Below, piece after piece: positions 2,004 through 42,965 of a stretch of 64,000 bases of DNA (its first letter is position 1; every line of letters starts with the position of its first letter). Position numbers and translations under genes: made by a program. Origin of the DNA: Octopus vulgaris (lineage: Eukaryota); NCBI GenBank assembly GCA_951406725.2, contig OX597827.1:79360001-79424000 (forward strand), in the 5' to 3' direction. Below the pieces are notes generated by a model, which had not been told where the DNA came from, did no database searches, and saw only the letters and a program-made list of their open reading frames with translations.

Positions 2004-4399
2004 CTGAGGCACAGGTGGAAGTCTCCTCTGTGTTGTTGAGAATTTCCACTCATCTGGTGTCTGTTCCATCTCCAGAAAAACTGACTTTTAGATTTTATTG
2101 TCTGAAGATTTCGGTTAAATATCTCTTCTGCATTTCTCGTTATTGCAACAGGATTGTTAGTCTGATACAGTAATTGTCTCATCTCAGTCTGAGAGAGAAA
2201 GTTGGGATTCTCTGCTGTTGTGGGTGAGTTATTTGTGTGATTAATACATCTGAAAACACACAGTGTTATGGACACTACAATAGCCACAGATAGTATTACA
2301 GCTGCTGCTACAATGATAATTACCCAAGTCATATTCAGGTCGTGACCAGACTGGAATGGCACAGCAGTCAACATTGGAGATGTATCATTACTAACAAACA
2401 GTGTTAGTATGATAGCAGTTGTTGCTGATTGAACTGGAGTACCACCGTCTTTCACTATAAACTGCAGCTCATATGTTCCTGCATCATTTTGGTAAACTGT
2501 GCGAGAGAAAGATAACACACCAGTGTGTGAGTTCACTGTAAACAGGTTTTTATCATTGGATCTCAGTATTCCATATGTGAGGAAAGCATTGTTTCCAGTG
2601 TCTTTGTCAGATGCTCTCAGAATTGTGATGTCCTTCTTACTGTGTGGATGGTAGTGGACATCGAGATTGTAAGGGTCATTATTAGGAAACGTAAAATACG
2701 GAGCATTATCATTTTTATCTAGAATCTCAATAACAATATTGGCAGTGTCATTGAGAGAAGGTGTTCCATTATCTTTCACTAAAACCTGGAACTTATAGAT
2801 GTCTTTCATTTCTCGATCTATTGATTGTGATGTAGAAATAAATCCATATTTGGTCAGTTGGAAAGGAATGTTATCATTGTTGTTATCATTGATGATAGAA
2901 TATGTAAGTTGGCCTCCATCTCCAAGATCAGGGTCTGTAGCATTGATGAAGCCAATAGGGAAGTCAACTTTCTGGTTTTCATAGGTGAGGAATTGGAATG
3001 TCTCTTTGGTAAAATGTGGTTCTACATCATTGACATCAGTTACTTTGACAGAGAAATATTTTTTACTTTCTAGTTGAGGTGACCCCATGTCATGACACAC
3101 AATAGATACTTTATAGTGGTCCCTTATTTCTCTGTCAAGATGGCCCTTAACAATCATTTTATATTCTTTAGAATCTATTTTGGCAAGTTTAAATTTATCA
3201 TGTTTTAAATCACAGATAACCTCACCATTAGGTCCACTATCGGTGTCAGTGACCATAACATAAGCTATAAAACTACCAATTTTACTTGCTTCTGAAACTG
3301 CTGCTGAACTCTCAGATAAAGGAGATACAAAATCTATATTTATCAATGGAGCAGTATTCTGGTTATTAATAATGTGAATCTGGACTTTGGTTAAAGAACT
3401 TAAGGGTGGATTTCCTCCATCTCGTGCTTCAATAAATAACTTATAAGACTGCATTTTAGTAAACTGAAAATTGTCATGTAAAAACAAATCTCCAGTTTTC
3501 TTATCTAACACAAAATATTTCTGGATATTTCGAGATGTTTTATGGTTGAAATGATAAGAAATCCTTCCATTGTCTCCAGAATCTTGATCTGTGGCTTTTA
3601 AAGTAAGAATTGGTAAATGTCTTTGATGTGAATTACTTACAGAGATGTTGTAGATTTCCTGTGGAAATACAGGTGTATTATCATTAACATCTGTTACAGA
3701 TATGTGTACTTTGAGTGAAGCTGTTTTTGGTGGGTTCCCTCCATCTTTAGCTTCTAGTATCAACATATAATAGTCTTTGAGTTCCCTGTCTAATCTATCT
3801 TCTAGAATTAGCGCAGGTATGAAAATACCCTTCTGTTTTGTAACAGAGAGTGAAAATGGTTCTCTTTTACTTTTCTTGATCATATATGTAATTTGGGAAT
3901 TTTTTATTGAAATATCTTCATCAATGGCATTTAGAAGAGTGATTTTAGTACCTTTAAAATCTCTCTCTAAAAACTTTATTGTGATTTCATTCTGTGGAAA
4001 TTCTGGAGAATGGTCATTAATGTCTTCTATTAATATTTTTATTTTGAGAATTTTCATAAAAGTTTCTTCTTTCCTCACTGCTACCTTAACTATTCTGGAA
4101 CATTCCTTGTTGTATGTACACAGAGACTCAGCATCCAGTGTTTGAGTAGTGTATAGTTTTCCTGAGTTGGTGACATTAAATAAGTGAGAACCACTCTCGA
4201 CTGTCCTTTGTAGTTGTGTAAATGTAATGAGAGTGTGTTGTTGATGTGTGAGAGGGTGTGATAAGTTGGAGTCAACAGCAATGTCTCCAATATAGGTGTG
4301 AGGACTGCCTTCTTCATTGACATGGTATATAATATCTATGGACAGTACAAGGGTGATCAGTAAATGTAGAAGACACAGTAGACCAATATATGCTGTCAT
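2004..4399 (-). CDS. Protocadherin copy 1, large exon: signal peptide, six cadherin repeats, TM, proximal tail; 1-nt deletion at ~2076-2080 shifts frame near the exon end
   Basis: Cadherin motifs (DINDHSP, LDRE, DVNDNTP, AxDxG), EC1 C-x5-C (CTYNKEC) typical of protocadherins, TM segment WVIIIVAAAVILSVAIVVSITLCVF, donor CCTCAG|GTAAAT. Length 2396 nt versus 2397 in copy 2. Confidence 0.93.
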
Positions 4400-4736
4400 G
4401 TCTGGGATTCTTCATCACATTTCAGCAGGAGAATTTGCTATAAAAGACAACAAATATTTAAACATTAAGTAGAATAAAATAAGTTAATTTGAAGTTATAA
4501 TAACCATTATATAAATGATTATTGTTTGTATGTCTTTTTCATGTGCTCTAAATAATTCAAAATGTTTCTTCTAATCTAACAAGCTAACTCACAATATATA
4601 GATGATGCCGCTTCTTTGGAAAAAGGCAGCAACCTTTCTGTGTTTAGAATTGCATTTAGAATGTTTTGGCATGACAAGTTTCATAATTTACTATTGAGAG
4701 AGTACTTAGAAAGGGACAACATCTTGATATTGATGT

Positions 4737-4935: not shown

Positions 4936-6288
4936 ATATTGCCTCACAGTAGATTGATACTGAAATATCACATCTTTGTTGACTCCATGAGTATCTGATG
5001 AGGATATTTCATTGAGATATTTTGTAACAAATGTTTAATCTTGTTCAGGCTCCATGTCTTCCTTAGAAACCATTTCAAAACAGACACGGAGCCTGAACAG
5101 CCTTTCAGCTGGTCAGTTCCTACCAAACCATCCAACCCATGCTAGCATGAAAAATGGACATCAAATGATGATGACAATGGTGATTAGATGTAATCAATTT
5201 ATAGTTAAATATTTAGAATTTAATCCACACTGTAGTTATATGTTGGAATATTAACTGATAATGCTGTTAATGATTCTATTTCTGGTTGAAAGAATAAATG
5301 TAATGCAAAACATATCTTTATATTGTAGAAGTGTGTGTAATACTTCTCTGTAGAAATATGAAACCAAGTTCCATTCCTCAATACACACACCAATATAAAC
5401 ACCTTCAGGCACACATATATATTACAGGCAAGCAAAACAGTCTATATTCTTCTGGATAGGTAACAACACTGGGTGGACGAAGTAAACATATTGGAGGTAG
5501 ACAAAAGGATAGATAAAGAAACTGAGGCAGTCAGAGAAGATACCAGAACAATTACAATTAGACTTGTCATAGACAACATGACTGCAGCCATTATCTCTTC
5601 ACTTAAACTGCAAACGAGAGGAACAGATGAACAACAGGATTGTTTCAATAAAACTCTCTTATGGATCATCATGATAACAAAATAAGTTTGTATTTCACAC
5701 AAAATATTTTGAATAAGAAAGCTAGACAAGATTATATTTATCATCCATTGTAATGATAATGAGGATGATGATGGTGATGAGGAACATTCTTTACTTAGTA
5801 TGCACGAAGGAATATATAATGGATATATATATATATATATATAGGGATATTACTAATGTTAGAATTCATAAATTATTAACAGCGTCTTATTGGCTATAAT
5901 CAATGTTTTCTGACAGTTAAATAAATGCACACACACACATACACGCACACACATATATCAGTTTGGACTATATTAAACAATTCTATATAAGATATATAGT
6001 TTAATATCCTTTGTATAATGTTGTCTTATGTGATTCTGACATTAAAAGGTGTAATCCAGATTGAAGTAATTGTAATACAATGACTACTACAGTTGTTGTT
6101 GTTGTTAATGGTGGCAGTGATGGCTAGATCTCTCGATCCTCCACTGTCCCAGTCCCTGTATATATACAACATGGCAGACATTTTAGATATTATCCTTACC
6201 CTGTCTTTCATTAGAAACACAAATAATATAAATGTTATAATGAATATGAAAAGATAATAAAGAGAAAGAAAGAGAGAGGGAGACTTAC

Positions 6289-6600
6289 CTGCATTGTTTA
6301 ATCCTTCACTGTAGTTGTGTGTGATGGATGATGTGTATCCTGCTGTAGTGTTCCACTCCAACTGCTGCTGCTGCTGTAGTGGTATTATAGTGGTACTGCT
6401 GCTGTTGTAGTAGTGTTCCCGTGTTACTGCAGCTGCTGCTGCTGTTCCTGTGTAACTGCTGATATAATAGTGTGACAGTTGCTGTATGTAGTGGGAGGTG
6501 AGATGTTAGCCAGATGCTGGTGTGTGCTAGTTACAACTCTATGTCCTCCACACACACACACACAATTGTGTGTATGATGAACAAAGAAAAAAGCTATCAG
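6289..6600 (-). other. Non-coding leader (5' UTR) exon of copy 1; 5' end approximate
   Basis: Consensus donor GCAG|GTAAGT at 6289. CAG/CTA-repeat-rich and near-identical in four units. Matching acceptor ttttatag| at 4437, 38 nt upstream of the ATG. Confidence 0.7.
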
Positions 6601-6688
6601 CCTCACTTTCAATATTGAAAGAAATATAGAAAATCTCTCTCATCCAATAGGAAATTACTGCAATGTTGTCTGTGTCACACAAACACAT
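6600..6688 (-). promoter_or_regulatory. Putative core promoter of copy 1 (CCAAT 6644-6648; 16-bp palindrome CTTTCAATATTGAAAG 6606-6621)
   Basis: Block almost invariant upstream of all four leader exons; similarity ends abruptly after cacacaaacacat. Confidence 0.55.
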
Positions 6689-7589: not shown

Positions 7590-7669
7590 CTATGTTGGCT
7601 GTAGATAGGTATCTTGTATTTGTTGTCCCTTTAGTATTGTGGCTGCAACTGGATTGTCATTGGTATATT
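7590..7669 (-). CDS. Protocadherin copy 2, terminal coding exon
   Basis: Same acceptor, phase and TAG as copy 1. Confidence 0.82.
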
Positions 7670-7833
7670 CTGCAAAATATCAAATATACAAACACAAATT
7701 ACATTTCAATATAACAACTCCAATATATAAAGATAGAAACATTGATCTTATATTACACTAAGCATAACATTATATATTGTCCTACAGTAATAAAGGCAAT
7801 TACATTTATATGTTATGTTTTGATAAAAGTTAC

Positions 7834-7978
7834 CTGGTTCTGCAGGTATCTCATCATATGGTTTAGTCTTGCCATTACTCTTGCTAGCTTCTCTGTCCTT
7901 TTGGGATGTTAAGGTGTCACTGTTGTAAGACATGATGGAACTGGTGCGACGTCCTTGACTATGGATTGAATCACATCT
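7834..7978 (-). CDS. Protocadherin copy 2, 145-nt cytoplasmic exon
   Basis: Acceptor tttctataatcaccag|, donor CCAG|GTAACT, open frame. Confidence 0.84.
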
Positions 7979-8270: not shown

Positions 8271-10667
8271 CTGAGGCACAGGTGGAAGTCTCCTTTGTGT
8301 TGTTGAGAATTTCCACTCATCTGGTGTCTGTTCCATCTCCAGAAAAAACTGACTTTTAGATTTTATTGTCTGAAGATTTCGGTTAAATATCTCTTCTGCA
8401 TTTCTCGTTATTGCAACAGGATTGTTGGTCTGATACAGTAATTGTCTCATCTCAGTCTGAGAGAGAAAGTTGGGATTCTCTGCTGTTGTGGGTGAGTTAT
8501 TTGTGTGATTAATACATCTGAAAACACACAGTGTTATGGACACTACAATAGCCACAGATAGTATTACAGCTGCTGCTACAATGATAATTACCCAAGTCAT
8601 ATTCAGGTCGTGACCAGACTGGAATGGCACAGCAGTCAACATTGGAGATGTATCATTACTAACAAACAGTGTTAGTATGATAGCAGTTGTTGCTGATTGA
8701 ACTGGAGTGCCACCGTCTTTCACTATAAACTGCAGCTCATATGTTCCTGCATCAGTTTGGTAAACTGTGCGAGAGAAAGATAACACACCAGTGTGTGAGT
8801 TCACCGTAAACAGGTTTTTATCATTGGATCTCAGTATTCCATATGTGAGGAAAGCATTGTTTCCAGTGTCTTTGTCAGATGCTTTCAGAATTGTGATGTC
8901 CTTCTTACTGTGCGGATGGTAGTGGACATCTAGATTGTAAGGGTCATTGTTAGGAAACGTAAAATACGGAGCATTATCGTTTTTATCTAGAATCTCAATA
9001 ACAATATTGGCAGTGTCATTGAGAGAAGGTGTTCCATTATCTTTCACTAAAACCTGGAACTTATAGATGTCTTTCATTTCTCGATCTATTGATTGTGATG
9101 TAGAAATAAATCCATATTTTGTCAGTTGGAAAGGAATGTTATCATTGTTGTTATCATTGATGATAGAATATGTAAGTTGGCCTCCATCTCCAAGATCAGG
9201 GTCTGTAGCATTGATGAAGCCAATAGGGAAGTCAACTTTCTGGTTTTCATAGGTGAGGAATTGGAATGTCTCTTTGGTAAAATGTGGTTCTACATCATTG
9301 ACATCAGTTACTTTGACAGAGAAATATTTTTTACTTTCTAGTTGAGGTGACCCCATGTCATGACACACAATAGATACTTTATAGTGGTCCCTTGTTTCTC
9401 TGTCAAGGTGGCCCTTAACAATCATTTTATATTCTTTAGAATCTATTTTGGCAAGTTTAAATTTATCATGTTTTAAATCACAGATAACCTCACCATTAGG
9501 TCCACTATCAGTGTCAGTGACCATAACATAAGCTATAAAACTACCAATTTTACTTGCTTCTGAAACTGCTGCTGAGCTCTCTGATAAAGGAGATACAAAA
9601 TCTATATTTATCAATGGAACATTATTCTGATTATTGACTATGTGAATCTGAACTGCTGCAACAGATTTTTTGGGTGGCTTTCCTCCATCTCTTGCTTCTA
9701 TAAATAATTTATAAAACTGCATTTTACTAAACTGAAAATTATCATGTAAAAATAAATCTCCAGTTTTCTTATCTAAAACAAAATATTTCTGAATATTTCG
9801 AGATGTTTTATGGTTGAAATAATATGAAACCTTTCCATTTTGTCCAGAATCTTGATCTGTGGCTTTTAAAGTAAGGAATGGTAAATGTCTTTGATGTGAA
9901 TTACTTATAGAGATGTTGTAAAGTTTCTGTGAAAATACAGGTATGTTATCATTGACATCTGTCACAGATATGTGTACCTTCAGTGTAGCTGTTTTGGGAG
10001 GGTTCCCTCCATCTTTAGCTTCCAAGGTCAACATATATGAATCCTTTATTTCCCTGTCTAATTTGTCGTCTAGAATTAGTTCAGGTATAAAAATACCATC
10101 ACGTTTTGTGACAGAGAGAGAAAAAGGTTCTCTTTTATTTTTCTCAATTATATATATAATTTGAGAATTCTTTACTGAAATATCTTCATCAATGGCATTC
10201 AGAAGAGAGATTCTAGTACCTTTAGTGTCTCTTTCTAGAAATTCAATTTCAACTTCATTTTGTGGAAATTCTGGTGAATGGTCATTGATGTCTTCTATTA
10301 ATATTTTTATTTTGAGAATTTTCATAAATGCTTCTTCTTTCCTCACTGCTACTTTAACTATTCTGGAACATTCCTTGTTGTATGTACACAGAGACTCAGC
10401 ATCCAGTGTTTGAGTAGTGTATAGTTTTCCTGAGTTGGTGACATTAAATAAGTGAGAACCACTCTCGACTGTCCTTTGTAGTTGTGTAAATGTAATGAGA
10501 GTGTGTTGTTGATGTGTGAGAGGGTGTGATAAGTTGGAGTCAACAGCAATGTCTCCTATATAGGTGTGAGGTCTGCCTTCTTCCTTGACATGGTATGTAA
10601 TATCTATGGACAGTACAAGGGTGATCAGTAAATATAGAAGACACAGTAGACCAATATATGCTGTCAT
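8271..10667 (-). CDS. Protocadherin copy 2, large exon (799 codons; spliced product ~873 aa)
   Basis: Intact ORF with signal peptide, six EC repeats and TM. Donor PPVPQ|GTAAAT at 8271; acceptor at 10705. Confidence 0.95.
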
Positions 10668-10831
10668 GTCTGGGATTCTTCATCACATTTCAGCAGGAGA
10701 AATTGCTATAAAAGACAACAAATATTTAAACATTAAGTACAATAAAATAAGTTCATTTGAAGTTATAATAACCATTATATAAATGATTATTGTTTGTATG
10801 TCTTTTTCATGTGCTCTAAGCTCCATTCCTC

Positions 10832-13169: not shown

Positions 13170-13484
13170 CTGCATTGTTTAATCCTTCACTGTAGTTGTG
13201 TGTGATGGATGATGTGTATCCTGCTGTAGTGTTCCACTCCAACTGCTGCTGCTACTGCTGTAGTGGTATTGTAGTGGTATACTGCTGCTGTTGTAGTAGT
13301 GTTCCTGTGTTACTGCTGCTGCTGCTGCTGTTCCTGTGTAACTGCTGATATAATAGTGTGACAGTTGCTGTATGTAGTGGGAGGTGAGATGTTAGCCAGA
13401 TGCTGGTGTGTGCTAGTTACAACTCTATGTCCTCCACACACACACACAATTGTGTGTATGATGAACAAAGAAAAAAGCTATCAG
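13170..13484 (-). other. Non-coding leader exon of copy 2; 5' end approximate
   Basis: Donor GCAG|GTAAGT at 13170; near-identical to 6289-6600. Confidence 0.7.
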
Positions 13485-13572
13485 CCTCACTTTCAATATT
13501 GAAAGAAATATAGAAAATCTCTCTCATCCAATAGGAAATTACTGCAATGTTGTCTGTGTCACACAAACACAT
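13484..13572 (-). promoter_or_regulatory. Putative core promoter of copy 2 (CCAAT 13528-13532; palindrome 13490-13505)
   Basis: Essentially identical to 6600-6688. Confidence 0.55.
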
Positions 13573-14605: not shown

Positions 14606-14685
14606 CTATGTTGGCTGTAGATAGGTATCTTGTATTTGTTGTCCCTTTAGTATTGTGGCTGCAACTGGATTGTCATTGGTATATT
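14606..14685 (-). CDS. Protocadherin copy 3, terminal coding exon
   Basis: Same acceptor, phase and TAG as the other copies. Confidence 0.82.
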
Positions 14686-14849
14686 CTGCAAAATATCAAA
14701 TATACAAACACAAATTACATTTCAATATAACAACTCTAATGTATAAAGATAGAAACATTGATCTTATATTACACTAAGCATAACATTATATATTGTCCTA
14801 CAGTAATAGAGGCAATTACATTTATATGTTATGTTTTGATAAAAGTTAC

Positions 14850-14994
14850 CTGGTTCTGCAGGTATCTCATCATATGGTTTAGTCTTGCCATTACTCTTGC
14901 TAGCTTCTCTGTCCTTTTGGGATGTTAAGGTGTCACTGTTGTAAGACATGATGGAACTGGTACGACGTCCTTGACTATGGATTGAATCACATCT
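14850..14994 (-). CDS. Protocadherin copy 3, 145-nt cytoplasmic exon
   Basis: Acceptor ttttctaatcaccag|, donor CCAG|GTAACT. Confidence 0.84.
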
Positions 14995-15454: not shown

Positions 15455-17848
15455 CTGAGGAACAGGTGGAAGTCTTCTTTGTGTTGTTGAGAATTTCCAC
15501 TCATCTGGTGTCTGTTCCATCTCCAGAAAAAACTGACTTTTAGATTTTATTGTCTGAAGATTTCGGTTAAATATCTCTTCTGCATTTCTCGTTATTGCAA
15601 CAGGATTGTTAGTCTGATACAGTAATTGTCTCATCTCAGTCTGAGAGAGAAAGTTGGGATTCTCTGCTGTTGTGGGTGAGTTATTTGTGTGATTAATACA
15701 TCTGAAAACACACAGTGTTATGGACACTACAATAGCCACAGATAGTATTACAGCTGCTGCTACAATGATAATTACCCAAGTCATATTCAGGTCGTGACCA
15801 GACTGGAATGGCACAGCAGTCAACATTGGAGATGTATCATTACTAACAAACAGTGTTAGTATGATAGCAGTTGTTGCTGATTGAACTGGAGTACCACCGT
15901 CTTTCACTATAAACTGCAGCTCATATGTTCCTGCATCATTTTGGTAAACTGTGCGAGAGAAAGATAACACACCAGTGTGTGAGTTCACTGTAAACAGGTT
16001 TTTATCATTGGATCTCAGTATTCCATATGTGAGGAAAGCATTGTTTCCAGTGTCTTTGTCAGATGCTCTCAGAATTGTGATGTCCTTCTTACTGTGCGGA
16101 TGGTAGTGGACATCGAGATTGTAAGGGTCATTATTAGGAAACGTAAAATACGGAGCATTATCATTTTTATCTAGAATCTCAATAACAATATTGGCAGTGT
16201 CATTGAGAGAAGGTGTTCCATTATCTTTCACTGAAACCTTGAACTTATAGATGTCTTTCATTTCTCGATCTATTGATTGTGATGTAGAAATGAATCCATA
16301 TTTTGTCAGTTGGAAAGGAATGTTATCATTGTTGTTATCATTGATGATAGAATATGTAAGTTGGCCTCCATCTCCAAGATCAGGGTCTGTAGCATTGATG
16401 AAGCCAATAGGGAAGTCAACTTTCTGGTTTTCATAGGTGAGGAATTGGAATGTCTCTTTGGTAAAATGTGGTTCTACATCATTGACATCAGTTACTTTGA
16501 CAGAGAAATATTTTTTACTTTCTAGTTGAGGTGACCCCATGTCATGACACACAATAGATATTTTATAGTGGTCCCTTATTTCTCTATCAAGATGGCCCTT
16601 AATAATTATCTTATATTCTTTAGAATCAATTTTGGCAAGTTTAAATTTATCATGTTTTAAATCACAGATAACCTCACCATTAGGTCCACTATCATTGTCA
16701 GTGACCATAACATAAGCTATAAAACTATCTACTTCACTGTCTTCAGAAACTGCTGCTGAACTCTCTGATAAAGGAGATACAAAATCTATATTTATCAACG
16801 GAACATTGTTTTGGTTATTAATTACATAAATGTGAATTCTGGCTACCGACATTAGAGGTGGATTCCCACCATCTCTTGCTTCTATAAATAAAGACTGCAT
16901 CTTACTAAAGTGAAAATTATCATGTAAAAATAAATTTCCAGTTTTCTTATCTAATACAAAATATTTCAGTATATTTTGAGATGTTTTATGGTTGAAATGA
17001 AAAGAAATCTTTCCATTTTGTCCAGAATCTTGATCTGTGGCTTTTAAAGTAAGAATTGGTAAATGTCTTTGATGTGAATTAGTTATTGATATATTGTAGA
17101 GTTTCTGTGAAAATATAGGTGTGTTATCATTAACATCTGTCACAGATATGCGTACCTTGAGTGTACCTGTTCTGGGAGGGTTCCCTCCATCTTTAGCCTC
17201 TAAGGTCAATATATACAAATCTTTTACTTCCCTGTCTAATTTGTCTTCTAAAGTTAGTTCAGGTATAAAAACACCATCATTATCTTTTGCCATATACAAA
17301 GAAAATGGTTCTCTTTTATATTTTATGTTATATGAAATTTGGGAATTCATGATGGTAATATCTCTGTCTATAGCATATGGAATTTTTTTCTGAGTTCCTT
17401 TCAGACTATCTTCTGCAAACTTGATACCTATTTCATCATCCGTAAATTCTGGAGAATGGTCATTGATATCTTCTATTATTATTTTCACCTTCAAAATCTT
17501 CATGAAAGTTTTTCCTTTCCTCACTGCTACTTTAACTATTCTGGAACATTCCTTGTTGTATGTACACAGAGACTCTGCATCCAGTGTTTGAGTAGTGTAT
17601 AGTTTTCCTGAGTTGGTGACATTAAATAAGTGAGAACCACTCTCGACTGTCCTTTGTAGTTGTGTAAATGTAATGAGAGTGTGTTGTTGATGTGTGAGAG
17701 GGTGTGATAAGTTGGAGTCAACAGCAATGTCTCCTATATAGGTGTGAGGACTGTCTTCTTCCTTGACGTGGTAGGTGATGTCTACAGACATTACAAGAGA
17801 CTGTTTTATATATAGCAAACACACCAAGTAAAAAACGTTTTCATTCAT
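15455..17848 (-). CDS. Protocadherin copy 3, large exon (798 codons; spliced product ~872 aa)
   Basis: Intact ORF with six EC repeats and TM. Donor at 15455; acceptor atttgtag| at 17886. Confidence 0.95.
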
Positions 17849-18132
17849 GACTGCAACTCTTCATTCTTCATTATTATTGAATATTTCTACAAATATAATA
17901 GAAATTATTTAATACCAGCTTAAAGAAAAAATTTGACATGAAAGTTCATCAAATATAAACCTTGGAGTACTATACAATAAAAATATATTAGAAAATTGTG
18001 AAAGAAAGTCATTAAAAGTAAGTTTTTATGTTCCTGTTAAGTGTGAAGAAATAGTCCGGATTTACATTAGAGTTATCTCCCCTAGACGTTGTAAACAATA
18101 CTCATCTGAAGCGTTCTTTCGAAAATTGTATA

Positions 18133-20478
18133 CATCATCCTGCTCATCGTCGTTTAACGTCCACTTTCCATGCTGGCATGGGTTGGACAGTTTGACGGAG
18201 GACTGGCAAGCCAGAAGGCTGTACCAAGCTCCAATCTGATCTGGCAAAAGTTTCTACAGCTGGATGCCCTTCCTAATGCTAATTACTCCAAGAGTGTAGT
18301 GCGTGCTTTTTGTGTGCTACCGGCATGAGGGCCAGTCTGACAACGACCATGCTTGAATGGTGCTTTTTATGTACCACCAACACAGAACCGGTTAGGCAGC
18401 ACTGGCATCGAACACGCTCGAATGGTACTCTTTACGTGCCACCAGCACGGGTGCCACTCAGGTGGTACTGGCATCGGGCACGACAATGACTTCACTTGAC
18501 TCAACAGGTCTTCGCAAGCACCATTTATTGCCCAGTAATTGAAGGGTATTCTTAAATGGGCCGATTATGCTGCACTGGCATAGGCAACGTTATGGTCTCA
18601 CTTGGCTTGCCAGGTTTTCTCAAGCACAGCATATCTCCAAAGGTCTCGGTCACTCATCATTGCCTCCTTGAGTTCCAACGTTCAATGGTTGTACTTCACC
18701 ACCTCATCCCACGTCTTCCTGGGTTTACCACTTCCACAGGTTTTCTCTACAGCTAGGATGTGACACTTTTTCACACAGCTGTCTTCATCCATATGCAGCA
18801 CATGACCATACCAGCACATTCGTCTCTCTTGCACACCACATTTGATGTTTCTTATGTCCAATTTTTCTCTCAGGGCGATACACTCTGCCGTGTATACACA
18901 CTGACGTTACACATCCAGCAGAGCATACTAAGTTCATTTCTTGCAAGCTTATGCACGTCCTCAGCAGTCATAGCCATGTTTGACTGCTGTGTAGCATGGC
19001 TGTTCACACACATGCATCATACAGTCTACCCTTTACTCTGAGCAAGAGACCCTTTGTTACCAGCAGAGGTAGGAGCTCTCTGAACTTTGCCCAGGTTATT
19101 CTTATTGTTGCAGCTACACTCTCAGAGCATCCAGCCCTGCAACTGACTTCGCCACCTAGATAATGGAAGCTATTAACTACTTCTAGTTTTTCCCCATAGC
19201 AAGTGACAGAAGCTGTTTTCTGAACATCATCAGTGTTTGTTGCCCCTGAGCATTTGCTACACAAAAACTATCTTCTCAGTTAGCCTTCTTTTGATATTGC
19301 TGCACCTCTTATGTGTCCATAGCTTACACCAGGTACATCTTATGGAGTTTCTACCTATGCCTTTTCTATAGATCAAGCAGGGCCATCTACCTGGAGGGAT
19401 TTGTGATTTGTCTGCCTTCCTACTTATTAAGACTTTGGTTTTTGCTAGATTGACTCTAAGGCCCTTCGATTCTAGACCTTGCTTCCACACCTGAAACTTC
19501 TCTAGTTCTGATAGTGACTCAGCTATTAGAGCAAGGTCATCAACACAGAGAAGCTCCCAGAGGCAGCCTGTATTGAATTCCTCTGTTATTGCCTGGAGGG
19601 CTATGATAAATAAGAGAGGGCTGAGGACTGATCCTTGGTGGACCCCTACTCCTACATGGAATTCTTCAATATACTTGTTGCCAACCCTCACCTTATTGAC
19701 AGCACCCCTGTACATGGCTTGCGCGGCTCTCACTAACCATTCATCTATCCCTAGTTTCCTCATTGACCACCAGATAAGGGATCAGGGGACAGTGTCAAAG
19801 GCCTTCTCCATGTCAACGAAAGCCAAGTACAGAGGTTTATCTTTGGCTAGGTATTTCTTCTGCAGTTATCTTACCGGAAATATAGCATAAGTGGTGCTTT
19901 TCCCTGGCACAAACCCAAACTGCATTTTATCTAAACTAACTCTCACCCTATGTCCCTCTCTGTAACTTTCATTACCTGAACCAACAACTTGATACCTCTA
20001 ATTATTTGTATCCAATGCATCGCATTTACCTTTGTAGCAGTTGACTATGGTGCTGCTACACCAGCCATTGTGTATGACTCCTTCGTGTATCACCTGACTG
20101 ACTATACGACTGACTAGACTATAGCCGACACTGCCAGATATTTTAAGCATCTCTGTGGTGATTCCTGATGGGCTGGGGGCATTCCCTATCTTCATACCCT
20201 TAATTGCTTTATCTACCAAGGTACTCTCAATTTGGATAGCTGGTCCCTCTGTTTGGTTGACAATTGGTAGACTCTTTTTCCCATTCATTCTCTTCATTTA
20301 GCAACCTTTCATAGTGGCATCTCCAAGTCTCTCCTATGACATCATGATTCTCTCTCAAAACAGTCTTGCAACACTAAACACTTCAAGTCTTTGGTCTTCA
20401 TGATGCAGAATTTTTTATCTGTTTTCCCTCTGGCTAAGTAAACCTATCTCCTAGCTTTCCTTCTGGCAATCTGATACA
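18133..20478 (-). mobile_element. 5'-truncated, frameshifted RTE-clade LINE (reverse transcriptase plus 3' UTR with (GAT)n tail)
   Basis: Broken ORFs with GVHQGSVLSPLLF, a degenerate YADD (CVDDLAL), KGLRVNLAKTKV, a Cys-rich insert (CTWCKLWTHKRC) and FHYLG. Tail ccatgccagcatggaaagtggacgttaaacgacgatg. Confidence 0.9.
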
Positions 20479-26546: not shown

Positions 26547-26861
26547 CTGCATTGTTTAATCCTTCACTGTAGTTGTGTGTGATGGATGATGTGTATCCTG
26601 CTGTAGTGTTCCACTCCAACTGCTGCTACTGCTGCTGTAGTGGTATTATAGTGGTACTGCTGCTGTTGTAGTAGTGTTCCTGTGTTACTGCAGCTGCTGC
26701 TGCTGTTCCTGTGTAACTGCTGATATAATAGTGTGACAGTTGCTGTATGTAGTGGGAGGTGAGATGTTAGCCAGATGCTGGTGTGTGCTAGTTACAACTC
26801 TATGTCCTCCACACACACACACACAATTGTGTGTATGATGAACAAAGAAAAAAGCTATCAG
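26547..26861 (-). other. Non-coding leader exon of copy 3 (8.66-kb first intron); 5' end approximate
   Basis: Donor GCAG|GTAAGT at 26547; near-identical to the other leaders. Confidence 0.68.
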
Positions 26862-26949
26862 CCTCACTTTCAATATTGAAAGAAATATAGAAAATCTCTC
26901 TCATCCAATAGGAAATTACTGCAATGTTGTCTGTGTCACACAAACACAT
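26861..26949 (-). promoter_or_regulatory. Putative core promoter of copy 3 (CCAAT 26905-26909; palindrome 26867-26882)
   Basis: Essentially identical conserved block. Confidence 0.55.
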
Positions 26950-27849: not shown

Positions 27850-27929
27850 CTATGTTGGCTGTAGATAGGTATCTTGTATTTGTTGTCCCTTTAGTATTGT
27901 GGCTGCAACTGGATTGTCATTGGTATATT
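27850..27929 (-). CDS. Protocadherin copy 4, terminal coding exon
   Basis: Same acceptor, phase and TAG as the other copies. Confidence 0.82.
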
Positions 27930-28093
27930 CTGCAAAATATCAAATATACAAACACAAATTACATTTCAATATAACAACTCCAATATATAAAGATAGAAAC
28001 ATTGATCTTGTATTACACTAAGCATAACATTATATATTGTCCTACAGTAATAAAGGCAATTACATTTATATGTTATGTTTTGATAAAAGTTAC

Positions 28094-28238
28094 CTGGTTC
28101 TGCAGGTATCTCATCATATGGTTTAGTCTTGCCATTACTCTTGCTAGCTTCTCTGTCCTTTTGGGATGTTAAGGTGTCACTGTTGTAAGACATGATGGAA
28201 CTGGTACGACGTCCTTGACTATGGATTGAATCACATCT
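28094..28238 (-). CDS. Protocadherin copy 4, 145-nt cytoplasmic exon
   Basis: Acceptor tttttctaatcaccag|, donor CCAG|GTAACT. Confidence 0.84.
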
Positions 28239-28614: not shown

Positions 28615-31017
28615 CTGAGGCACAGGTGGAAGTCTCCTTTGTGTTGTTGAGAATTTCCATTCATCTGGTGTCTGTTCCATCTCCAGAAAAAACTGACTTT
28701 TAGATTTTATTGTCTGAAGATTTCGGTTAAATATCTCTTCTGCATTTCTCGTTATTGCAACAGGATTGTTAGTCTGATACAGTAATTGTCTCATCTCAGT
28801 CTGAGAGAGAAAGTTGGGATTCTCTGCTGTTGTGGGTGAGTTATTTGTGTGATTAATACATCTGAAAACACACAGTGTTATGGACACTACAATAGCCACA
28901 GATAGTATTACAGCTGCTGCTACAATGATAATTACCCAAGTCATATTCAGGTCGTGACCAGACTGGAATGGCACAGCAGTCAACATTGGAGATGTATCAT
29001 TACTAACAAACAGTGTTAGTATGATAGCAGTTGTTGCTGATTGAACTGGAGTACCACCGTCTTTCACTATAAACTGCAGCTCATATGTTCCTGCATCATT
29101 TTGGTAAACTGTGCGAGAGAAAGATAACACACCAGTGTGTGAGTTCACTGTAAACAGGTTTTTATCATTGGATCTCAGTATTCCATATGTGAGGAAAGCA
29201 TTGTTTCCAGTGTCTTTGTCAGATGCTCTCAGAATTGTGATGTCCTTCTTACTGTGTGGATGGTAGTGGACATCTAGATTGTAAGGGTCATTATTAGGAA
29301 ACGTAAAATACGGAGCATTATCATTTTTATCTAGAATCTCAATAACAATATTGGCAGTGTCATTGAGAGAAGGTGTTCCATTATCTTTCACTGAAACCTT
29401 GAACTTATAGATGTCTTTCATTTCTCGATCTATTGGATGTGATGTAGAAATGAATCCATATTTTGTCAGTTGGAAAGGAATGTTATCATTGTTGTTATCA
29501 CTGATGATAGAATATGTAAGTTGGCCTCCATCTCCAAAATCAGGGTCTGTAGCATTGATGAAGCCAATAGGGAAGTCAACTTTCTGGTTTTCATAGGTGA
29601 GGAATTGGAATGTCTCTTTGGTAAAATGTGGTTCTACATCATTGACATCAGTTACTTTGACAGAGAAATATTTTTTACTTTCTAGTTGAGGTGACCCCAT
29701 ATCACGACACACAACAGATACTTTATAATGGTCCCTTATTTCTCTGTCAAGGTGGCCCTTAACAATTATTTTATATTCTTTAGAATCCATTTTGGCAAGT
29801 TTAAATTTATCATGTTTTAAATCACAGCTAACCTCACCATTAGGTCCACTATCATTGTCGGTGACCATAACATAAGCTATAAAACTATCTACTTCACTGT
29901 CTTCTGAAACTGCTGTGGAACTCTCTGATAAAGGAGATACAAAATCTATATTTATCATGGGAGCAGAATTTTGGTTACTAATGACGTGAATCTGTACCAT
30001 TGTTACAGAACTTAGGGAGGGACTCCCATCATCTTGTGCTTCAATGTATAATTTGTATGTATGTTTTCCACCAAAACTAAAATTATCTTTTAAATATATC
30101 TCACCATTAGTTCTCTTTAATAAAAAATATTTCTGGAACAGAATGGGAGTTTTATGGTTGAAATGGTAAGAAATCTTTCCATTGTGTCCAGAATCTCTAT
30201 CTGTTGCTTTTAAAGTAAGAATTGGTAAATGTCTTTGATGTGAATTGCTTATAGAGACATTGTAGACTTTCTGTGAAAATACAGGTGTGTTATCATTGAC
30301 GTCTGTCACAGATATGTGTACCTTGAGTGTAGCTGTTTTGGGAGGGTTCCCTCCATCTTTAGCTTCCAGGGTCAACATATATGAGTCTTTGACTTCTCTG
30401 TCTAATGTTTCTTCAAGAATAAGTTGAGGTATGAAGGCACCATCATTTTGTTTTTTCATGTACAAAGAAAATGGATCTCTTTGACTAGCCATTATTTTAT
30501 ATGAAATTTGGGAATTCAAGATGGTTATATCCCTATCTATGGCAAATGGAATTATCCTTCTGGTTCCTTTAAAACTATCTTCAGTATATTTAACAGTGAT
30601 TTTATCAATAGAAAATTCTGGAGAATGGTCATTGATGTCTTCTATTATTATTTTCACCTTCAGGATCTTCAGAAATCTTTTATTTTCCCTTACTGCTACT
30701 TTAACAATTCTGGAACATTCCTTGTTGTATGTACACAGAGACTCAGCATCCAGTGTCTGAGTAGTGTATAGTTTTCCTGAGTTGGTGACATTAAATAAGT
30801 GAGAACCACTTTCAACTGTCCTTTGTAGTTGTGTAAATGTAATGAGAGTGTGTTGTTGATGTGTGAGAGGGTGTGATAAGTTGGAGTCAACAGCAATGTC
30901 TCCTATATAGGTGTGAGGACTGCCTTCTTCCTTGACATGGTATGTAATATCTATGGACAGTACAAGAGACTGTCGTAATTGTAGCAAACACACCAGGTAA
31001 ATGATATTTCCATTCAT
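28615..31017 (-). CDS. Protocadherin copy 4, large exon (801 codons; spliced product ~875 aa)
   Basis: Intact ORF with six EC repeats and TM. Donor at 28615; acceptor aattctag| at 31053. Confidence 0.95.
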
Positions 31018-31929
31018 GTCTGTAGGTCGTCATTACTCTCCTATGAGATATTTCTAGAATTACAATAGGTAAAAATTACAAACAGAGACAAAGTAAGATT
31101 AAATATATGTCAGTGAGCAAAATTTTTTCTAAAAACAGTTTTGCTAAGTGATTCATTCTTGCAATATATAGTTCAGGTTTAACATACATAAATGTGTATT
31201 TGATTTGAATTTCAAAATTATTTTGTCAGCAATAAGCTATAAATTGGTTTCCAGCCTAGCATCCAAAGGAGCCTGTGAACCTGCTAAAGTAAAGCAGGAG
31301 AACCTTGAACGAAGACCTAAATTTGAGGATTCTGCATTGTAAAATGCATATTTAATCACAATAAGGCTGATCAAGACAAACTAAGATTTTCAAAATACTT
31401 TCTAAATCTACAGAAAGAGTTCAAGTTTTTTAGACAATTTTTAAAACATGACTTAAGCTTAAAAGTGTCTGTGTTTGCATCTAAAATTCTTACCCCTGCG
31501 TCAAGAGCAGCATCAGCTTTCTTATTAAATAAGTGATTTTGGTCTTTGGTTAATGTGATGTATTCAGTAACATATTCAGGTACATATATCATTCAGTTGT
31601 GAAATAAAACTGTGAAAATGACTGGCTATTAGTTACTAAAATCAGCTTGTTGAATACATAAATTTTTGAAAAGTATGGGAGTTGCGGAAAAAATTCCCTT
31701 AAATAAAAAGGGTCTTATGTTAGAAGAGCGATAAGGAGTGATGGTGGAAGGGTTAAATCCAGACACATGAAATACTATTCATAGTTATACAGGTGAGATG
31801 GAGAGAGAGTGATAGATGAAAGGGTAATGTAAATAGCGGTAGATGGAAACATAACAAGAATACACTGGGTAAGTGACCCAAATGCAGCCATCACCACCAT
31901 GAGTATCATTCATCATATTTTTTAAAATC

Positions 31930-34463: not shown

Positions 34464-34776
34464 CTGCATTGTTTAATCCTTCACTGTAGTTGTGTGTGAT
34501 GGATGATGCGTATCCTGCTGTAGTGTTCCACTCCAACTGCTGCTGCTGCTGTAGTGGTATTATAGTGGTACTGCTGCTGTTGTAGTAGTGTTCCTGTGTT
34601 ACTACTGCTGCTGCTGTTGTAGTGGTGGTGTTCCTGTGTAACTGCTGATATAATAGTGTGACAGGGCTTGTATGAGATGTTAGCCAGATGCTGGTGTGTG
34701 CTAGTTACAACTCTATGTCTTCCACACACACACACACACAATTGTGTGTATGATGAACAAAGAAAAAAGCTATCAG
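34464..34776 (-). other. Non-coding leader exon of copy 4; 5' end approximate
   Basis: Donor GCAG|GTAAGT at 34464; near-identical to the others apart from small indels. Confidence 0.68.
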
Positions 34777-34863
34777 CCTCACTTTCAATATTGAAAGAAA
34801 TATAGAAATCTCTCTCATCCAATAGGAAATTACTGCAATGGTGTCTGTGTCACACAAACACAT
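34776..34863 (-). promoter_or_regulatory. Putative core promoter of copy 4 (CCAAT 34819-34823; palindrome 34782-34797)
   Basis: Conserved block with one or two differences. Confidence 0.55.
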
Positions 34864-35750: not shown

Positions 35751-37830
35751 CTATGTTGGCTGTAGATAGGTATCTTGTATTTGTTGTCCCTTTAGTATTG
35801 TGGCTGCCACTGGATTGTCATTGGTATATTCTGCAAAATATCAAATATACAAACACAAATTACATTTCAATATAACAACTCCAATATATAAAGTTAGAAA
35901 CATTGATCTTATATTACACTAAGCATAACATTATATATTGTCCTACAGTAATAAAGGCAATTACATTTATATGTTATGTTTCGATAAAAGTTACCTGGTT
36001 CTGCAGGTATCTCATCATATGGTTTAGTCTTGCCATTACTCTTGCTAGCTTCTCTGTCCTTTTGGGATGTTAAGGTGTCACTGTTGTAGTTAGACAGGTT
36101 GGAACTGATGTGACCTTCTCGACTATGGATAGAAACATATCTCAGTTGATTATAGAAAAGATAAAAAATTATATTGATACAAATCTAGATCTTACCTAAT
36201 AAAACAGTCATTGTATAAAAAGTGTTGTATTTCTATAATAGGCATTGAAACTGTTTAAGTATCACTAAACAAAAATGAATAATTAATTCAGAAAGTCACA
36301 GATAAACAATAAATTTTAAGCAAAGGAATAAAACTGCTCATACACATGAGTTTCTAAAATTGATAATTTATATAAATATTTGAACATGTGTGAATAATCA
36401 CTAAAATACTTTTGCATTTAAAATCAAAAGGATATCAGAGACATAAAATGATATTTACCTGAGGAACAGGTGAGAAGTCTCCTCTGTGTTGTTCAGAATT
36501 TCCTCTCATCTGGTGTCTGTTCCATCTCCAGAAAAAAACTGACTTTTAAACTCTATTGTCTGAAGATTTCAGTTAAATATCTCTTCTGCATTTCTTGCAA
36601 TTGTCTCATCTCAGTCTGAGAGAGAAAGTTGGGATTCTCTGCTGTTGTGGGTGCGTTATTTGTGTGATTAATACATCTGAAAACACACAGTGTTATGGAC
36701 ACTACAATAGCCACAGATAGTATCACAGCTGCTGCTACAATGATAATTATCCAAGTCATATTCAGGTCATGACCAGACTGGAATGGCACAGCAGTCAACA
36801 TTGGAGATGTATCATTACTAACAAACAGTGTTAGTATGATAGCAGTTGTTGCTGATTGAACTGGAGTACCACTATAAACTCCAGCTAATATTAAAGACTT
36901 TAAGAACATGATATTTTGTTATGTAACCACAATATATTACAAAGTAGAGTAAATGTTTTTTTTTAAGTCAATAGCATGTTCTATTGTGTTAGCAGTGCTA
37001 TTACATCACTTGCTAAGGTCAGCTCATATGTTTCTGAAACATTTTGGTAACTTGTCTGAGAAAGATAACACATCAGCGTGTAAGTTCAGCACCCAGCACA
37101 CTCTGTAAAGTGGTTGGTACTAAGTAGGACATCCAGCTGTAGAAATCCAGCCAAAACAGATAGCTCCTGTCAAACTGTGCAACCCATGCTAGCATGGAAA
37201 ACAGATATGAAATGATGATGATGATGGATCTCAGTATTCCATATGTGAGGAAAGCATTGTTTCCAGTGTCTTTGTCAGATGCTTTCAGAATTGTGATGTC
37301 CTTCTTACTGTGTGGATGGTAGTGGACATCGAGATTGTAAGGGTCATTATTAGGAAACGTAAAATACGGAGCATTATCATTTTTATCTAGAATCTCAATA
37401 ACAATATTGGCAGTGTCATTGAGAGAAGGTGTTCCATTATCTTTCACTAAAACCTTGAACTTATAGATGTCTTTCATTTCTCGATCTATTGATTGTGATG
37501 TAGAAAAAAATCCATATTTTGTCAGTTGGAAAGGAATGTTATCATTGTTGTTATCATTGATGATAGAATATGTAAGTTGGCCTCCATCTCCAAGATCAGG
37601 GTCTGTAGCATTGATGAAGCCAATAGGGAAGTCAACTTTCTGGTTTTCATAAGTGAGGAATTGGAATGTCTCTTTGGTAAAATGTGGCTCTACATCATTG
37701 ACATCAGTTACTTTGACAGAGAACTGCTTCTTAGTCTTTAACAGAGATGATTCCATGTCATGATATACAACAGATGTTTCTTTGTCAAAGTGTCTTCTAA
37801 TAATAGAATGTAACATCCACATTATGTCCA
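35751..37830 (-). pseudogene. Truncated protocadherin pseudogene (end of EC4 through terminal exon)
   Basis: No signal peptide or EC1-3. Insertions at ~36886-37018 and ~37088-37226 in EC6, a ~30-nt deletion at ~36597, extra bases near 36473 and 36535, and the acceptor of the middle exon mutated AG>TG (36143-36144). Terminal exon 35751-35830 intact. Confidence 0.88.
37088..37226 (+). mobile_element. RTE LINE/SINE 3'-tail fragment inserted in pseudogene EC6
   Basis: catccagctgtagaaa...aacccatgctagcatggaaa...(gat)n, the same tail as the 18-kb LINE. Confidence 0.75.
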
Positions 37831-39603: not shown

Positions 39604-40033
39604 CATAAACATACACATAATACTCATACACACCCACGCACATATATTTTAGTGGATTCCTCAGTCTAATGGTTAATATTATAGCCATTAGACTACCCAG
39701 AGATGATTTTTTTACAGTAATGAAAGCTTGTTTAAGATGAGCACACTTTTTAGAAATGCTGATTGTAGAAAGTTTGAGTAAATGCTTGCCACAAAGTCGA
39801 TTAACAAAATACCTCAAGCTTTTCTATCAGAGAGTTAGTCTGACCAATCCTGGTAAGCTAAATGTGCATGTGGGTACCAAACCAGAAATGTCTACATCCT
39901 CACACACACATTGAATTCTAAGAGCAGTGCTTTTGGAGTTACAGAAACTTTTATCACTAACGAGTGGATGAAAAAAATATTTATAGCAATAACAAAGTGT
40001 ATTTAATATGGAAGAATGGTCAAAGGCTGTGAA

Positions 40034-40908
40034 AATTTAATATTTCTATTAAAGCAGACAATATTAAAACGATATGGCAATTTAATATTTTCATTAAAGC
40101 AGACGATACTAAAACAATGTAGCAATTTAATATTTCCATGAAAGCAGACGATATTAAAACGATATGGAAATTTAATATTTTCATTAAAGCAGATGATATT
40201 AAAACAATATGGCAATTTAATATTTTCATTAAAACAGACGATAGTGAACTAATGTAGCAATTTAATATTTTTATTAAAGCAGACGATACTAAAACAATGT
40301 AGCGATTTAATATTTCCATTAAAGCAGATGATATTAAAACAATATGGCAATTTAATATTTTCATTAAAGCAGACGATAGTAAAACAATATGGAAATTTAA
40401 TATTTCCATTAAAGCAAACGATACTAAAACAATGTAGCAATATAATATTTTCATTAAAGCAGATGATATTAAAACAATATGGAAATTTAATATTTTCATT
40501 AAAGCAGACGATAGTAAAACAATATGGAAATTTAATATTTCCATTAAAGCAACGAATACTAAAACAATGTAGCAATTTAATATTTTCATTCAAGCAGACG
40601 ATACTAAAACAATATGGAAATTTAATATTTTCATTAAAGGAAACGATATTAAAACAATATAAAAATTTAATATTTCCATTAGAGCAGACGATACTAAAAC
40701 ATAATGGCCATTTAATATTTCCATTAAAGCAGACGATATTGAAACAATATGGAAATTTGATATTTCTATTAAAGCAGACGATAGTAAAACAATTTGGTAA
40801 TCTAATATTTCCATTAAAGGAAACGATACTAAAACAATATAAAAATTTAATATTTCCATTAGAGCAGATGATATCAAAAGAATTTAATATTTCCATTAAA
40901 GCAGACGA
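40034..40908 (+). repeat. 45-bp minisatellite, ~19 units (left arm of palindrome)
   Basis: Unit ~aatttaatattttcattaaagcagacgatactaaaacaatgtagc; 15-aa periodicity in the overlapping ORFs. Confidence 0.92.
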
Positions 40909-41762
40909 CAATAAAACTGCTCCAAAGTTGGCAATGGAAGTACTTCGAATTTTTTAAGCAACATTATTTAAATACCGTTAATGAAATGTTAGTAAAAAAA
41001 GAAGAAAGGAAACAAAAAACTTATGGAGGTTCTCTGAATTTCTTTTTAGCACTTTATAAAGACTTTTTTTTTTGTTTCGATTTATGAATAAAACGTTTTT
41101 CGATTATCAAACTATGAAATATTAACAAAACGTTGGTAAAAAGAAGGAAAAAAACTCATGAAAGTCGTTCGAAAGTTTTCTTTTTAGCAATTAATAAAGA
41201 ATCCTCCCTTTTTTTTTTTTTTATAAAAAAGGATTATCAAGCATTGTTAGAAATTCACAAAATATCAGTCAAAACTCATAAGGTATATCAGAAATTAATA
41301 TCATTAATCAATATTTGCCTTTACATGTAAATATCCATATTGAAAACATTTTCCTAAATTAATTTTGGCAACAATATAAAATTAGAAATCAAAGGAGACG
41401 AATTTTACGATCTTTCATCGACGGCGAAGAATGTCTGCTGACGGAACGCAGACGACGAATGTTGCAGGGGAGATGACTCTTGGTTTCTTAAATTTCCACA
41501 TCGTTTTCAAAATATTAATGTCACTGGTCAACAGCCAATTTTCAGCGGGGATATTATATGGTGTTTTATATGTAGTTTTGTCCGCAGATTTCAAAAATGT
41601 AATCGGTTTCCTTCTATCAGGCACAGTTTTTCTGATGAGATAAGAGAGGTATATAACTCCCATCAGCAATATCACTACACGTAAACGTCTTATACAGGTC
41701 TGACTATATCAAGGCATTGCAAGAACAGTCCTGATATATTTTGTCATGTCTGTGGTTCATTT

Positions 41763-42362
41763 TCTGGTGGTATTGGAATAGGAAAATCGTCATCGTTGTG
41801 TGGTACTGGTCTTCTTGCTGATTCCAAGTTGGGATACACAATCTTATGCTTGGTCTTTACAGTAAACCCACATACATTAACGTTGCAGAAATAACAGCCC
41901 AAAGAAATGATCCTTTGGCTCTCTCCATATCATAGGTATTGCAAACGGCATTGCTCTCTTCCTCTTATATAGCCAATCCATTCATCAATTTGAACAAACT
42001 GAACAGATGATGTGCGGGGCCCAACTCTTATCTTGTTCCCTGAGAGAGCAGCCAAAGTATAACTGGCAGATCTTCTTGATTTCACTTGTGATGGCACGTT
42101 GCTGAGCTTTGCTGGTAAATGAACCACAGACATGACAAAATATATCAGGACTGTTCTTGCAATGCCTTGATATAGTCAGAATTTACCTGTATAAGACGTT
42201 TACGTGTAGCGATACTGCTGATGGGAGTTATATACCTCTCTTATCTCATCAGAAAAACTGTGCCTGATAGAAGGAAACCGATTACATTTTTAAAATCTGC
42301 GGACAAAACTACATATAAAACACCATATAATATCCCCGCTGAAAATTGGCTGTTGACCAGTG
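41763..42362 (-). mobile_element. 5' end of a Chapaev-type (CMC superfamily) DNA transposon with frameshifted N-terminal zinc-finger region
   Basis: Terminus CACTG at 42362. Translation across frameshifts: CKNSPDIFCHVCGSF...YFGC...QDKSWAPHIICSVC...MPFAIPMIWREPKDH...CYFC...IVYPNLESARRPVPH, a pattern I recognise from Chapaev3-like transposases. Confidence 0.72.
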
Positions 42363-42965
42363 ATATTAATATTTTGAAAACGATGTGGAAATTTAAGAAA
42401 CCAAGAGTCATCTCCCCTGCAACATTTGTCGTCTGCGTTCCGTCAGCAGACATTCTTCGCCGTCGATGAAAGATCGTAAAATTCGTCTCCTTTGATTTCT
42501 AATTTTATATTGTTGCAAAATTAATTTAGGAAAATGTTTTCAATATGGATATTTACATGTAAAGGCAAAGAGTGAGTAATGATATTAATTTCTGATATAC
42601 CTTATGAGTTTTGACTGATATTTTGTGAATTTCTAACAATGCTTGATAATATTTTTTATAAAAAAAAAAGGGAGGATTCTTTATTAATTGCTAAAAAGAA
42701 ATTTTCGAACGACTTCCATGAGTTTTTTCTTTCTTTTTACCAACGTTTTGTTAATATTTCATAGTTTGATAATCAAAAAAAGTTTTATTCATAAATCGAA
42801 AAACAAAAAAAGTCTTTATAAAGTGCTAAAAAGAAATTCAGAGAAGCTCCATAAGTTTTTTGTTTCCTTTTTTCCTTTTTTTACTAACATTTCATTAACG
42901 GTATTTAAATAATGTTGCTTAAAAAATTCGAAGTACTTCCATTGCCAACTTTGGAGCAGTTTTAT

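Follow-up and report, generated by a model that had tools for sequence, protein, structure and literature searches.

Four tandem octopus protocadherin genes of the cephalopod clustered type are each preceded by a near-identical block of about 400 bp, and this block is likely to consist of a promoter plus an untranslated exon 1 that is spliced to the remainder of the gene. Our preferred reading, held with moderate confidence, is that promoter and exon 1 are kept near-identical by recurrent gene conversion between neighboring genes and that the genes are broadly co-regulated. The block is a useful handle for the question of stochastic choice in cephalopods rather than a demonstrated mechanism. 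All coordinates refer to the window, the whole 64-kb stretch of DNA that was analyzed.

A tandem array of protocadherin genes

The window contains four long open reading frames (g1 to g4) and a fragment of a fifth (g5), all on the minus strand, which encode six cadherin repeats (EC1 to EC6), a transmembrane (TM) segment and a tail. Both proteins tested against Pfam gave five Cadherin matches plus Cadherin_2, the protocadherin-type EC1, and the closest solved structures to the window proteins were those of protocadherins. The top database matches, named protocadherin beta-15-like, were from Octopus sinensis (up to 93%), O. vulgaris and Argonauta hians, and g3 and g4 were 100% identical to two annotated O. 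vulgaris proteins over the compared columns.

The genes are head-to-tail full-gene duplicates, and all five units have their own exons 3 and 4. Exon 2 of g1 (2004..4437, minus strand) is composed of 38 nt of UTR, the ATG at 4399 and the codons for a signal peptide, EC1-6, the TM segment and part of the tail, and its acceptor reads TTTTATAG up to the splice point. The corresponding exons, also on the minus strand, are 8271..10705 in g2 (ATG at 10667), 15455..17886 in g3 (ATG at 17848) and 28615..31053 in g4 (ATG at 31017). EC2-3 of g3 is 100% identical to O. vulgaris P0018, and EC2-3 of g4 groups with Argonauta paralogues. Exon 2 is followed in each gene by an exon 3 of 145 nt, an intron 3 of 164 nt and exon 4. 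Upon splicing exons 2-4 in silico, g2, g3 and g4 each gave an intact open reading frame of 872-875 residues, the start and tail of which agree with annotated O. sinensis and O. vulgaris proteins.

In g1 the frame is shifted, one base being missing from a T run near 2085. This tail-coding run (about 2080-2090; 36530-36545 in g5) has five T residues in g1, six in g2-g4 and seven in g5, and g1 is either a frameshifted gene or the site of a homopolymer error; the O. vulgaris model P0025 begins with the g1-type shifted frame.

The fifth unit (35751..37775, minus strand) is a 5'-truncated and interrupted protocadherin remnant. It has nothing upstream of EC4-EC5, is interrupted twice and carries no block, and its 3' exons are homogenized, being nearly identical to those of g4 together with 351 nt of 3' UTR. 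It is possible that g5 still serves as a conversion partner despite its missing promoter block. At 61934-62023 (minus strand) lies the last coding exon of a sixth protocadherin, which is a member of a different subfamily (97% to O. sinensis P0037) and is not followed by a copy of the block.

A candidate promoter and first exon

The four copies of the block, all on the minus strand, lie upstream of g1 (6289..6688, with 6289 the last exon base), g2 (13170..13572), g3 (26547..26949) and g4 (34464..34863), as the first-pass annotation had placed them. In BLASTN comparisons with copy 1 as the reference, copies 2, 3 and 4 were 97.5%, 99.0% and 91.8% identical, and the alignment shows that the leader of copy 4 has a 12-nt deletion and an 11-nt insertion. 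A profile search found no fifth or diverged copy in the 64-kb window (the next match had E=0.1). The proposal that a copy stands in front of every gene therefore holds for four of the five units having exon 2 in the window and fails for the 5'-truncated fifth, which has none. Positions 1-80 of the window match the stretch just upstream of copy 1, and a further copy probably begins about 30 nt outside position 1.

Identity had been said to collapse right after cacacaaacacat, and it does: in five of the six pairs the shared tract continues only 0-23 nt further (the best local alignment of the sixth pair landed elsewhere), and the 400 nt beyond this edge align at 55%. Because the genes run on the minus strand, this edge is the upstream end of the block. 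The downstream end is not at 6289, since the shared tract enters intron 1 by 108-185 nt in five pairs and by 849/1046 nt for copies 1/2. The 5' part of intron 1 (5440..6288, minus strand) is thus co-homogenized with the block over about 110-185 nt in most pairs and over 849 nt between copies 1 and 2.

Read along the gene strand, every copy terminates in ACAATGCAG followed by GTAAGT, giving the donor CAG|GTAAGT. The sequence CAGGTAAGT occurs four times on both strands of the 64 kb, in every case at a block end, and given this window-unique donor the block is most likely a promoter plus non-coding exon 1. Pyrimidine-rich candidate acceptors lie 38, 38, 38 and 36 nt before the ATGs of g1, g2, g3 and g4, for which the predicted intron 1 lengths are about 1.9, 2.5, 8.7 and 3.4 kb, respectively. 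No reading frame is conserved across the four copies, between which there are frame-shifting indels, and none of 1427 tblastn matches from 120 homologues falls inside a block. A coding exon or alternative tail was ruled out on these two grounds. The 5' 139 nt of the block is AT-rich (34% GC) and carries both of the palindromes described below, and the remaining 261 nt is leader-like with 46% GC. The block begins 887-1033 nt (about 0.9-1.0 kb) from the stop codon of the previous gene, and in none of the four units is there a strong donor between that stop and the block. The donor, the acceptors and the lack of coding use uphold the earlier assignment of the block to protocadherin genes with a promoter plus spliced leader anatomy.

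Exon 1 ends in ATGCAG, and the predicted splicing of 6289-6294 to 4400-4437 (or the equivalents in g2-g4) would open an upstream open reading frame of 15 codons. Its TGA overlaps the main ATG (as ATGA) in g1-g3, and splicing to 31041 or to 31020 would give the same overlap in g4. This arrangement may act as a translational damper or in stop-start coupling, or may be due to chance.

The block is apparently undescribed so far. Three block or gene motifs and the term UTR gave no matches in the supplement of Styfhals 2019, and neither a promoter nor a non-coding first exon is described for cephalopod protocadherins in the open-access literature that was searched; supplements, subscription papers and annotations may hold one.

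The motifs reported in the first-pass annotation, CCAAT, CTTTCAATATTGAAAG and ACACACAATTGTGTGT, are present in all four copies, and the CAG-rich part is also as described. Both longer motifs are perfect 16-bp palindromes. The first, CTTTCAATATTGAAAG (6606..6621; also at 13490, 26867 and 34782), is a candidate site for a dimeric factor, and the second, ACACACAATTGTGTGT (6558..6573; also at 13442, 26819 and 34734), adjoins a (TG)n microsatellite of variable length. Among 5000 shuffles, one 16-bp palindrome was seen in 0.96% and two were never seen, figures that apply to palindromes chosen post hoc, one of which (ACACACAATTGTGTGT) leans on the (TG)n microsatellite that shuffling breaks up. Eight of the nine perfect palindromes of at least 16 nt in the window, (AT)n excluded, are in blocks; as the four copies are not independent, these are two events rather than eight. 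Both palindromes, like the sharp upstream edge, go beyond chance and make good cis-element leads.

The CCAAT (6644..6648, plus strand and thus reverse to the gene; also at 13528, 26905 and 34819) is at chance level, with a background of 0.93 per 400 nt and presence in 43% of 2000 shuffles, and was dropped as evidence for a promoter. Neither a canonical TATA nor a TCAKTY initiator was found on the gene strand, TATA-like sequences being below background. Consensus scans likewise agreed with the reported absence of a CTCF-like motif: none of the 38 window matches to the CTCF consensus with up to three mismatches was inside a block, the CGCT box was absent from all four copies, and copy 1 has one CpG. 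The closest candidate for a CTCF site or conserved sequence element, CCAGCATCTGGCTA, has four mismatches and was rejected, the count at four mismatches (6) being reached in 16% of 300 shuffles.

Patchy homogenization along the gene units

As a control for the block we used the second homogenized island of the units, composed of exon 3, intron 3 and the coding part of exon 4 (7590..7978 in g2, minus strand; equivalents at 884-1272, 14606-14994, 27850-28238 and 35751-36142). Among the four copies 13 of 385 columns of the block are variable versus 14 of 429 in this island (Fisher p=1.0). Intron 3 alone has 9 of 164 (p=0.24 versus the block), and the last 500 nt of exon 2 has 7 of 499. No control region differs from the whole block (p 0.07-1.0), and the near-invariance of the block is not special among the parts of the gene unit. 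The 5' part of the block (1 of 136 variable) was nominally lower than intron 3 (9 of 164), with p=0.025 in one of six tests.

Synonymous divergence varies widely along the coding sequence: dS is 0.68 in EC2 and 0.50 in EC3, compared with 0.07 for the EC1 core and 0.11 for EC4; in EC5, EC6, the TM segment and the tail it is 0.026, 0.036, 0 and 0.029, respectively. The dN/dS of EC2-EC3 is about 0.3. Even intron 3 of g5 is 96-99% identical to those of the other units, whereas the spacers, like introns 1 and 2, can hardly be aligned (45-56%). The ectodomains had been called non-equivalent, and indeed EC2-EC3 has only about 70% amino-acid identity.

For comparison across species 48 proteins were aligned (four from the window plus 44 of the top 45 matches), of which the 27 with the same tail type were kept and 21 dropped. 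For EC6, the TM segment and the exon-2 tail, identity is 98-100% inside either genus, Octopus or Argonauta, and 80-89% between the two, whereas EC2-EC3 is 67-83% identical within genera and 65-71% between. Near-fixed differences between Octopus and Argonauta number 60 in EC1 plus EC4-tail and zero in EC2-EC3. A tree of EC5-tail (27 rows) separates Octopus from Argonauta with 100/100 support. The EC2-3 tree (26 rows, one having been dropped for coverage) rejects this split (p-AU 0.00025), and in it g4 groups with three Argonauta rows at 99/96 support. The g4 lineage thus split from g1-g2 before Octopus and Argonauta did, yet its block differs from the other blocks by only about 2% substitutions, and so the block was presumably homogenized later. 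The EC2-EC3 variants (9615-10270 in g2, and the equivalents) are common to the Octopus and Argonauta lineages, and the rest of the protein is homogenized by lineage.

The partners of the shared tracts shift along the unit, being g1-g2 in intron 1, g3-g4 in intron 2 and g4-g5 in the 3' UTR, and the tract ends are staggered. Within exon 2, 66 of 88 informative sites favor (g1,g2)(g3,g4), and an ordinary duplication history is still dominant there; the informative sites are clustered (27 runs versus 36.5, p=0.0014). The tract shared by g1-g4 stops 42-177 nt after the stop codon, and the distal 3' UTRs differ. Neutral sites homogenized in patches and incongruent trees show patchy gene conversion of the coding part. 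Conversion of the non-coding block itself is likely, given its position and its equal divergence. As an intron, the synonymous sites and the truncated g5 are equally homogenized, conversion accounts for the identity, and selection for equal promoters need not be invoked. The low variation of the 5' 140 nt, its sharp common edge and its two rare palindromes are hints of selection beyond passive conversion.

In vertebrate clustered protocadherins conversion is described as strongest in EC5-EC6 and weakest in EC2-EC3 (PMC4978886). The window genes are alike (dS 0.03 in EC5-EC6 versus 0.5-0.7 in EC2-EC3), and the conversion map, with EC2-EC3 spared and EC5-tail homogenized, reproduces what is seen in vertebrates, although this family expanded independently. 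For cephalopods, Albertin 2022 (PMC9068888) describes full-gene duplication of protocadherins and proposes homogenization by gene conversion; the word promoter does not occur in the accessible text of that paper. Styfhals 2019 (PMC6339937) attributes the strong similarity of clustered genes to recent duplication or conversion, and Jiang 2022 (PMC9795677) dates a recent expansion to 8-14 Ma from pairwise distances, dates that conversion would, we infer, bias young. The coleoid arrays in these papers and in Styfhals 2022 resemble the present one in their head-to-tail full-gene duplicates, in having six EC repeats plus the TM segment in one large exon, and in their pseudogene fragments; unlike here, their accessible portions describe no promoter, non-coding first exon or domain-by-domain conversion map. 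In the review file of Styfhals 2022 (PMC9712504) the large exon is termed the first exon.

Possible co-regulation or promoter choice

In the reading that we prefer, the transcription start would fall within the block, probably immediately after the AT-rich 5' 140 nt with its palindromes, and exon 1 would be spliced over an intron of 1.9-8.7 kb to the large ectodomain exon. The EC1 core, EC4-tail and exon 3-intron 3-exon 4, and probably the block as well, are alternating islands homogenized within each lineage, between which EC2-EC3 and the spacers retain their old divergence. Function may anchor an island: selection would preserve homology, homology would allow conversion, and base-for-base identity would be a by-product. 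By analogy, the same core promoter and leader on each gene would bring the genes under one common set of transcription factors and hence under co-regulation. With the previous stop codon less than 1.1 kb away from the block, control specific to a gene, if any, would sit in the divergent intron 1 or in distal enhancers.

The first-pass annotation took the near-invariance as a pointer to stochastic promoter choice and the block as an analogue of the vertebrate conserved sequence element (CSE). Near-invariance does not carry that argument, given that an intron, the synonymous sites and the 3' exons of the truncated g5 are equally homogenized. Still, promoter equivalence could itself be selected, such that identical promoters compete for a distal enhancer and each neuron expresses a random EC2-EC3 subset, independently of CTCF and with the palindromes as anchors. 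Several points would suit such a scheme: identical promoters precede old and divergent EC2-EC3, which are the specificity domains in vertebrates (PMC4978886), each gene has hardly any upstream DNA of its own (the previous stop is 887-1033 nt away), the 5' 140 nt has 1 of 136 columns variable plus two palindromes beyond chance, and stochastic protocadherin expression has been put forward as a testable expectation for cephalopods (PMC10658181). However, selection for equivalence is superfluous in view of the homogenized intron and truncated gene. No CTCF match at up to three mismatches and no CGCT is seen, with only one CpG in copy 1; at about 0.3, the dN/dS of EC2-EC3 does not point to diversifying selection at the level of the domains; and each gene has a private intron 1 of 1.9-8.7 kb. 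Published expression of protocadherins is moreover broad or cell-type-specific, as in octopus, where Styfhals 2022 (PMC9712504) reports both classes along with read-through transcripts and about 19-21 protocadherins per cell, with 19 given as the average (for the whole family, not these four genes), and in a bobtail squid, where ubiquitous and specific classes are reported (PMC12240821). We therefore consider selected stochastic choice unlikely. We rank co-regulation above it, since the identity is already accounted for and the CTCF/methylation apparatus is absent; what keeps stochastic choice alive is the sharp upstream edge together with the palindromes. Equally doubtful is the fuller proposal that this octopod sub-array rebuilt the vertebrate barcode logic by a different route, with promoters, first exons and cytoplasmic tails made interchangeable by conversion (in place of shared constant exons) and with EC2-EC3 spared, its variants predating the separation of Octopus from Argonauta; neurons would then choose at random among the identical promoters through a palindrome-binding factor that works without CTCF.

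Comparison with the vertebrate system gives both likenesses and differences. In both, promoters (candidate ones in octopus) stand in tandem ahead of variable ectodomains. In vertebrates the CSE is short, combining a CTCF site with a CGCT box some 200 bp upstream of the ATG (PMC7811963, PMC4978886), whereas the octopus block shows identity over 400 bp, includes a separate predicted non-coding exon and has its donor 1.9-8.7 kb from the ATG. The CSE is controlled by methylation, whereas the block is almost without CpG and has no CTCF site or CGCT box. Vertebrate variable exons are spliced to shared constant exons, whereas each octopus unit keeps its own tail exons, homogenized by conversion. The tandem 5' cassettes of the chelicerate sDscam genes (Yue 2016, PMC4835542) are also an invertebrate recognition array having one promoter per variable unit, but they encode another protein family and are spliced to common exons, and their promoter activity was demonstrated by 5'RACE and reporters, whereas the octopus promoter is a prediction.

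Near-identical promoters have accompanied different modes of expression in other arrays. The primate red/green opsin array and the duplicated alpha- and gamma-globin, histone and hsp70 genes are full-gene duplicates with near-identical promoters maintained by conversion, and the outcome is enhancer-mediated choice for the opsins and co-expression for globin, histone and hsp70. Hence, promoter identity alone cannot decide the octopus mechanism. The block may mark where to look for random gene choice in neurons and does not itself show such choice; what it yields is a concrete candidate promoter and two candidate dyad sites for the stochastic-choice question in cephalopods. Short-read ATAC or CAGE signal will multi-map over these promoters. 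With equal promoters but different distal 3' UTRs, g1-g4 could be told apart in existing single-cell data from 3' ends.

It is improbable that the block is instead an internal 5'-UTR exon, or part of a read-through from the upstream gene, with the true promoter elsewhere. The distance to the upstream stop is constant (887-1033 nt) and that to the gene's own ATG variable, copies 1-3 contain a branch-point-like CTAAC, a pyrimidine run and CAG, and read-through protocadherin transcripts have been reported in octopus (PMC9712504). However, the putative internal acceptor is broken in copy 4, the invariant part reaches about 200 nt upstream of it, no unit has a strong donor upstream of the block, and no homologue has a block-derived peptide.

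A very recent duplication of whole units, or assembly polishing, as the cause of the apparent identity is highly improbable, and for the coding part is already contradicted. Although g1 and g2 are alignable over most of their length and the single-base T-run indels of g1 and g5 could be sequencing errors, alignment of the spacers and of introns 1 and 2 is barely possible, the dS of EC2-EC3 is 0.5-0.7, the EC2-3 lineage of g4 predates the Octopus-Argonauta split, the proteins of Argonauta, which come from a different genome, repeat the pattern with fixed residues of their own, and the block copies are distinguished by 13 sites and by the length of the microsatellite. A dispersed repeat with no connection to the genes, such as a MITE, SINE or structured RNA, is as remote. 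The short inverted repeats of the 5' part might speak for it, but within the window the block is found only at the same position of four units and is absent from the last 29 kb, and it has no tRNA-like head or pol III B box, no Rfam family near cut-off and no exceptional fold (z=-1.65; 7 of 100 shuffles as good). A structured RNA and a tRNA-derived SINE were rejected on the Rfam, fold and tRNA checks.

Other repeats do occur in the neighborhood. A 45-bp tandem satellite at 39899-43851, the long inverted arms of which (up to 350 nt, 97%) flank a short center, forms a foldback-like element just upstream of the g5 breakpoint. A reverse-transcriptase (LINE-like) fragment lies in intron 1 of g3 at 19059-19763, and a related copy is found at 49711-50191.
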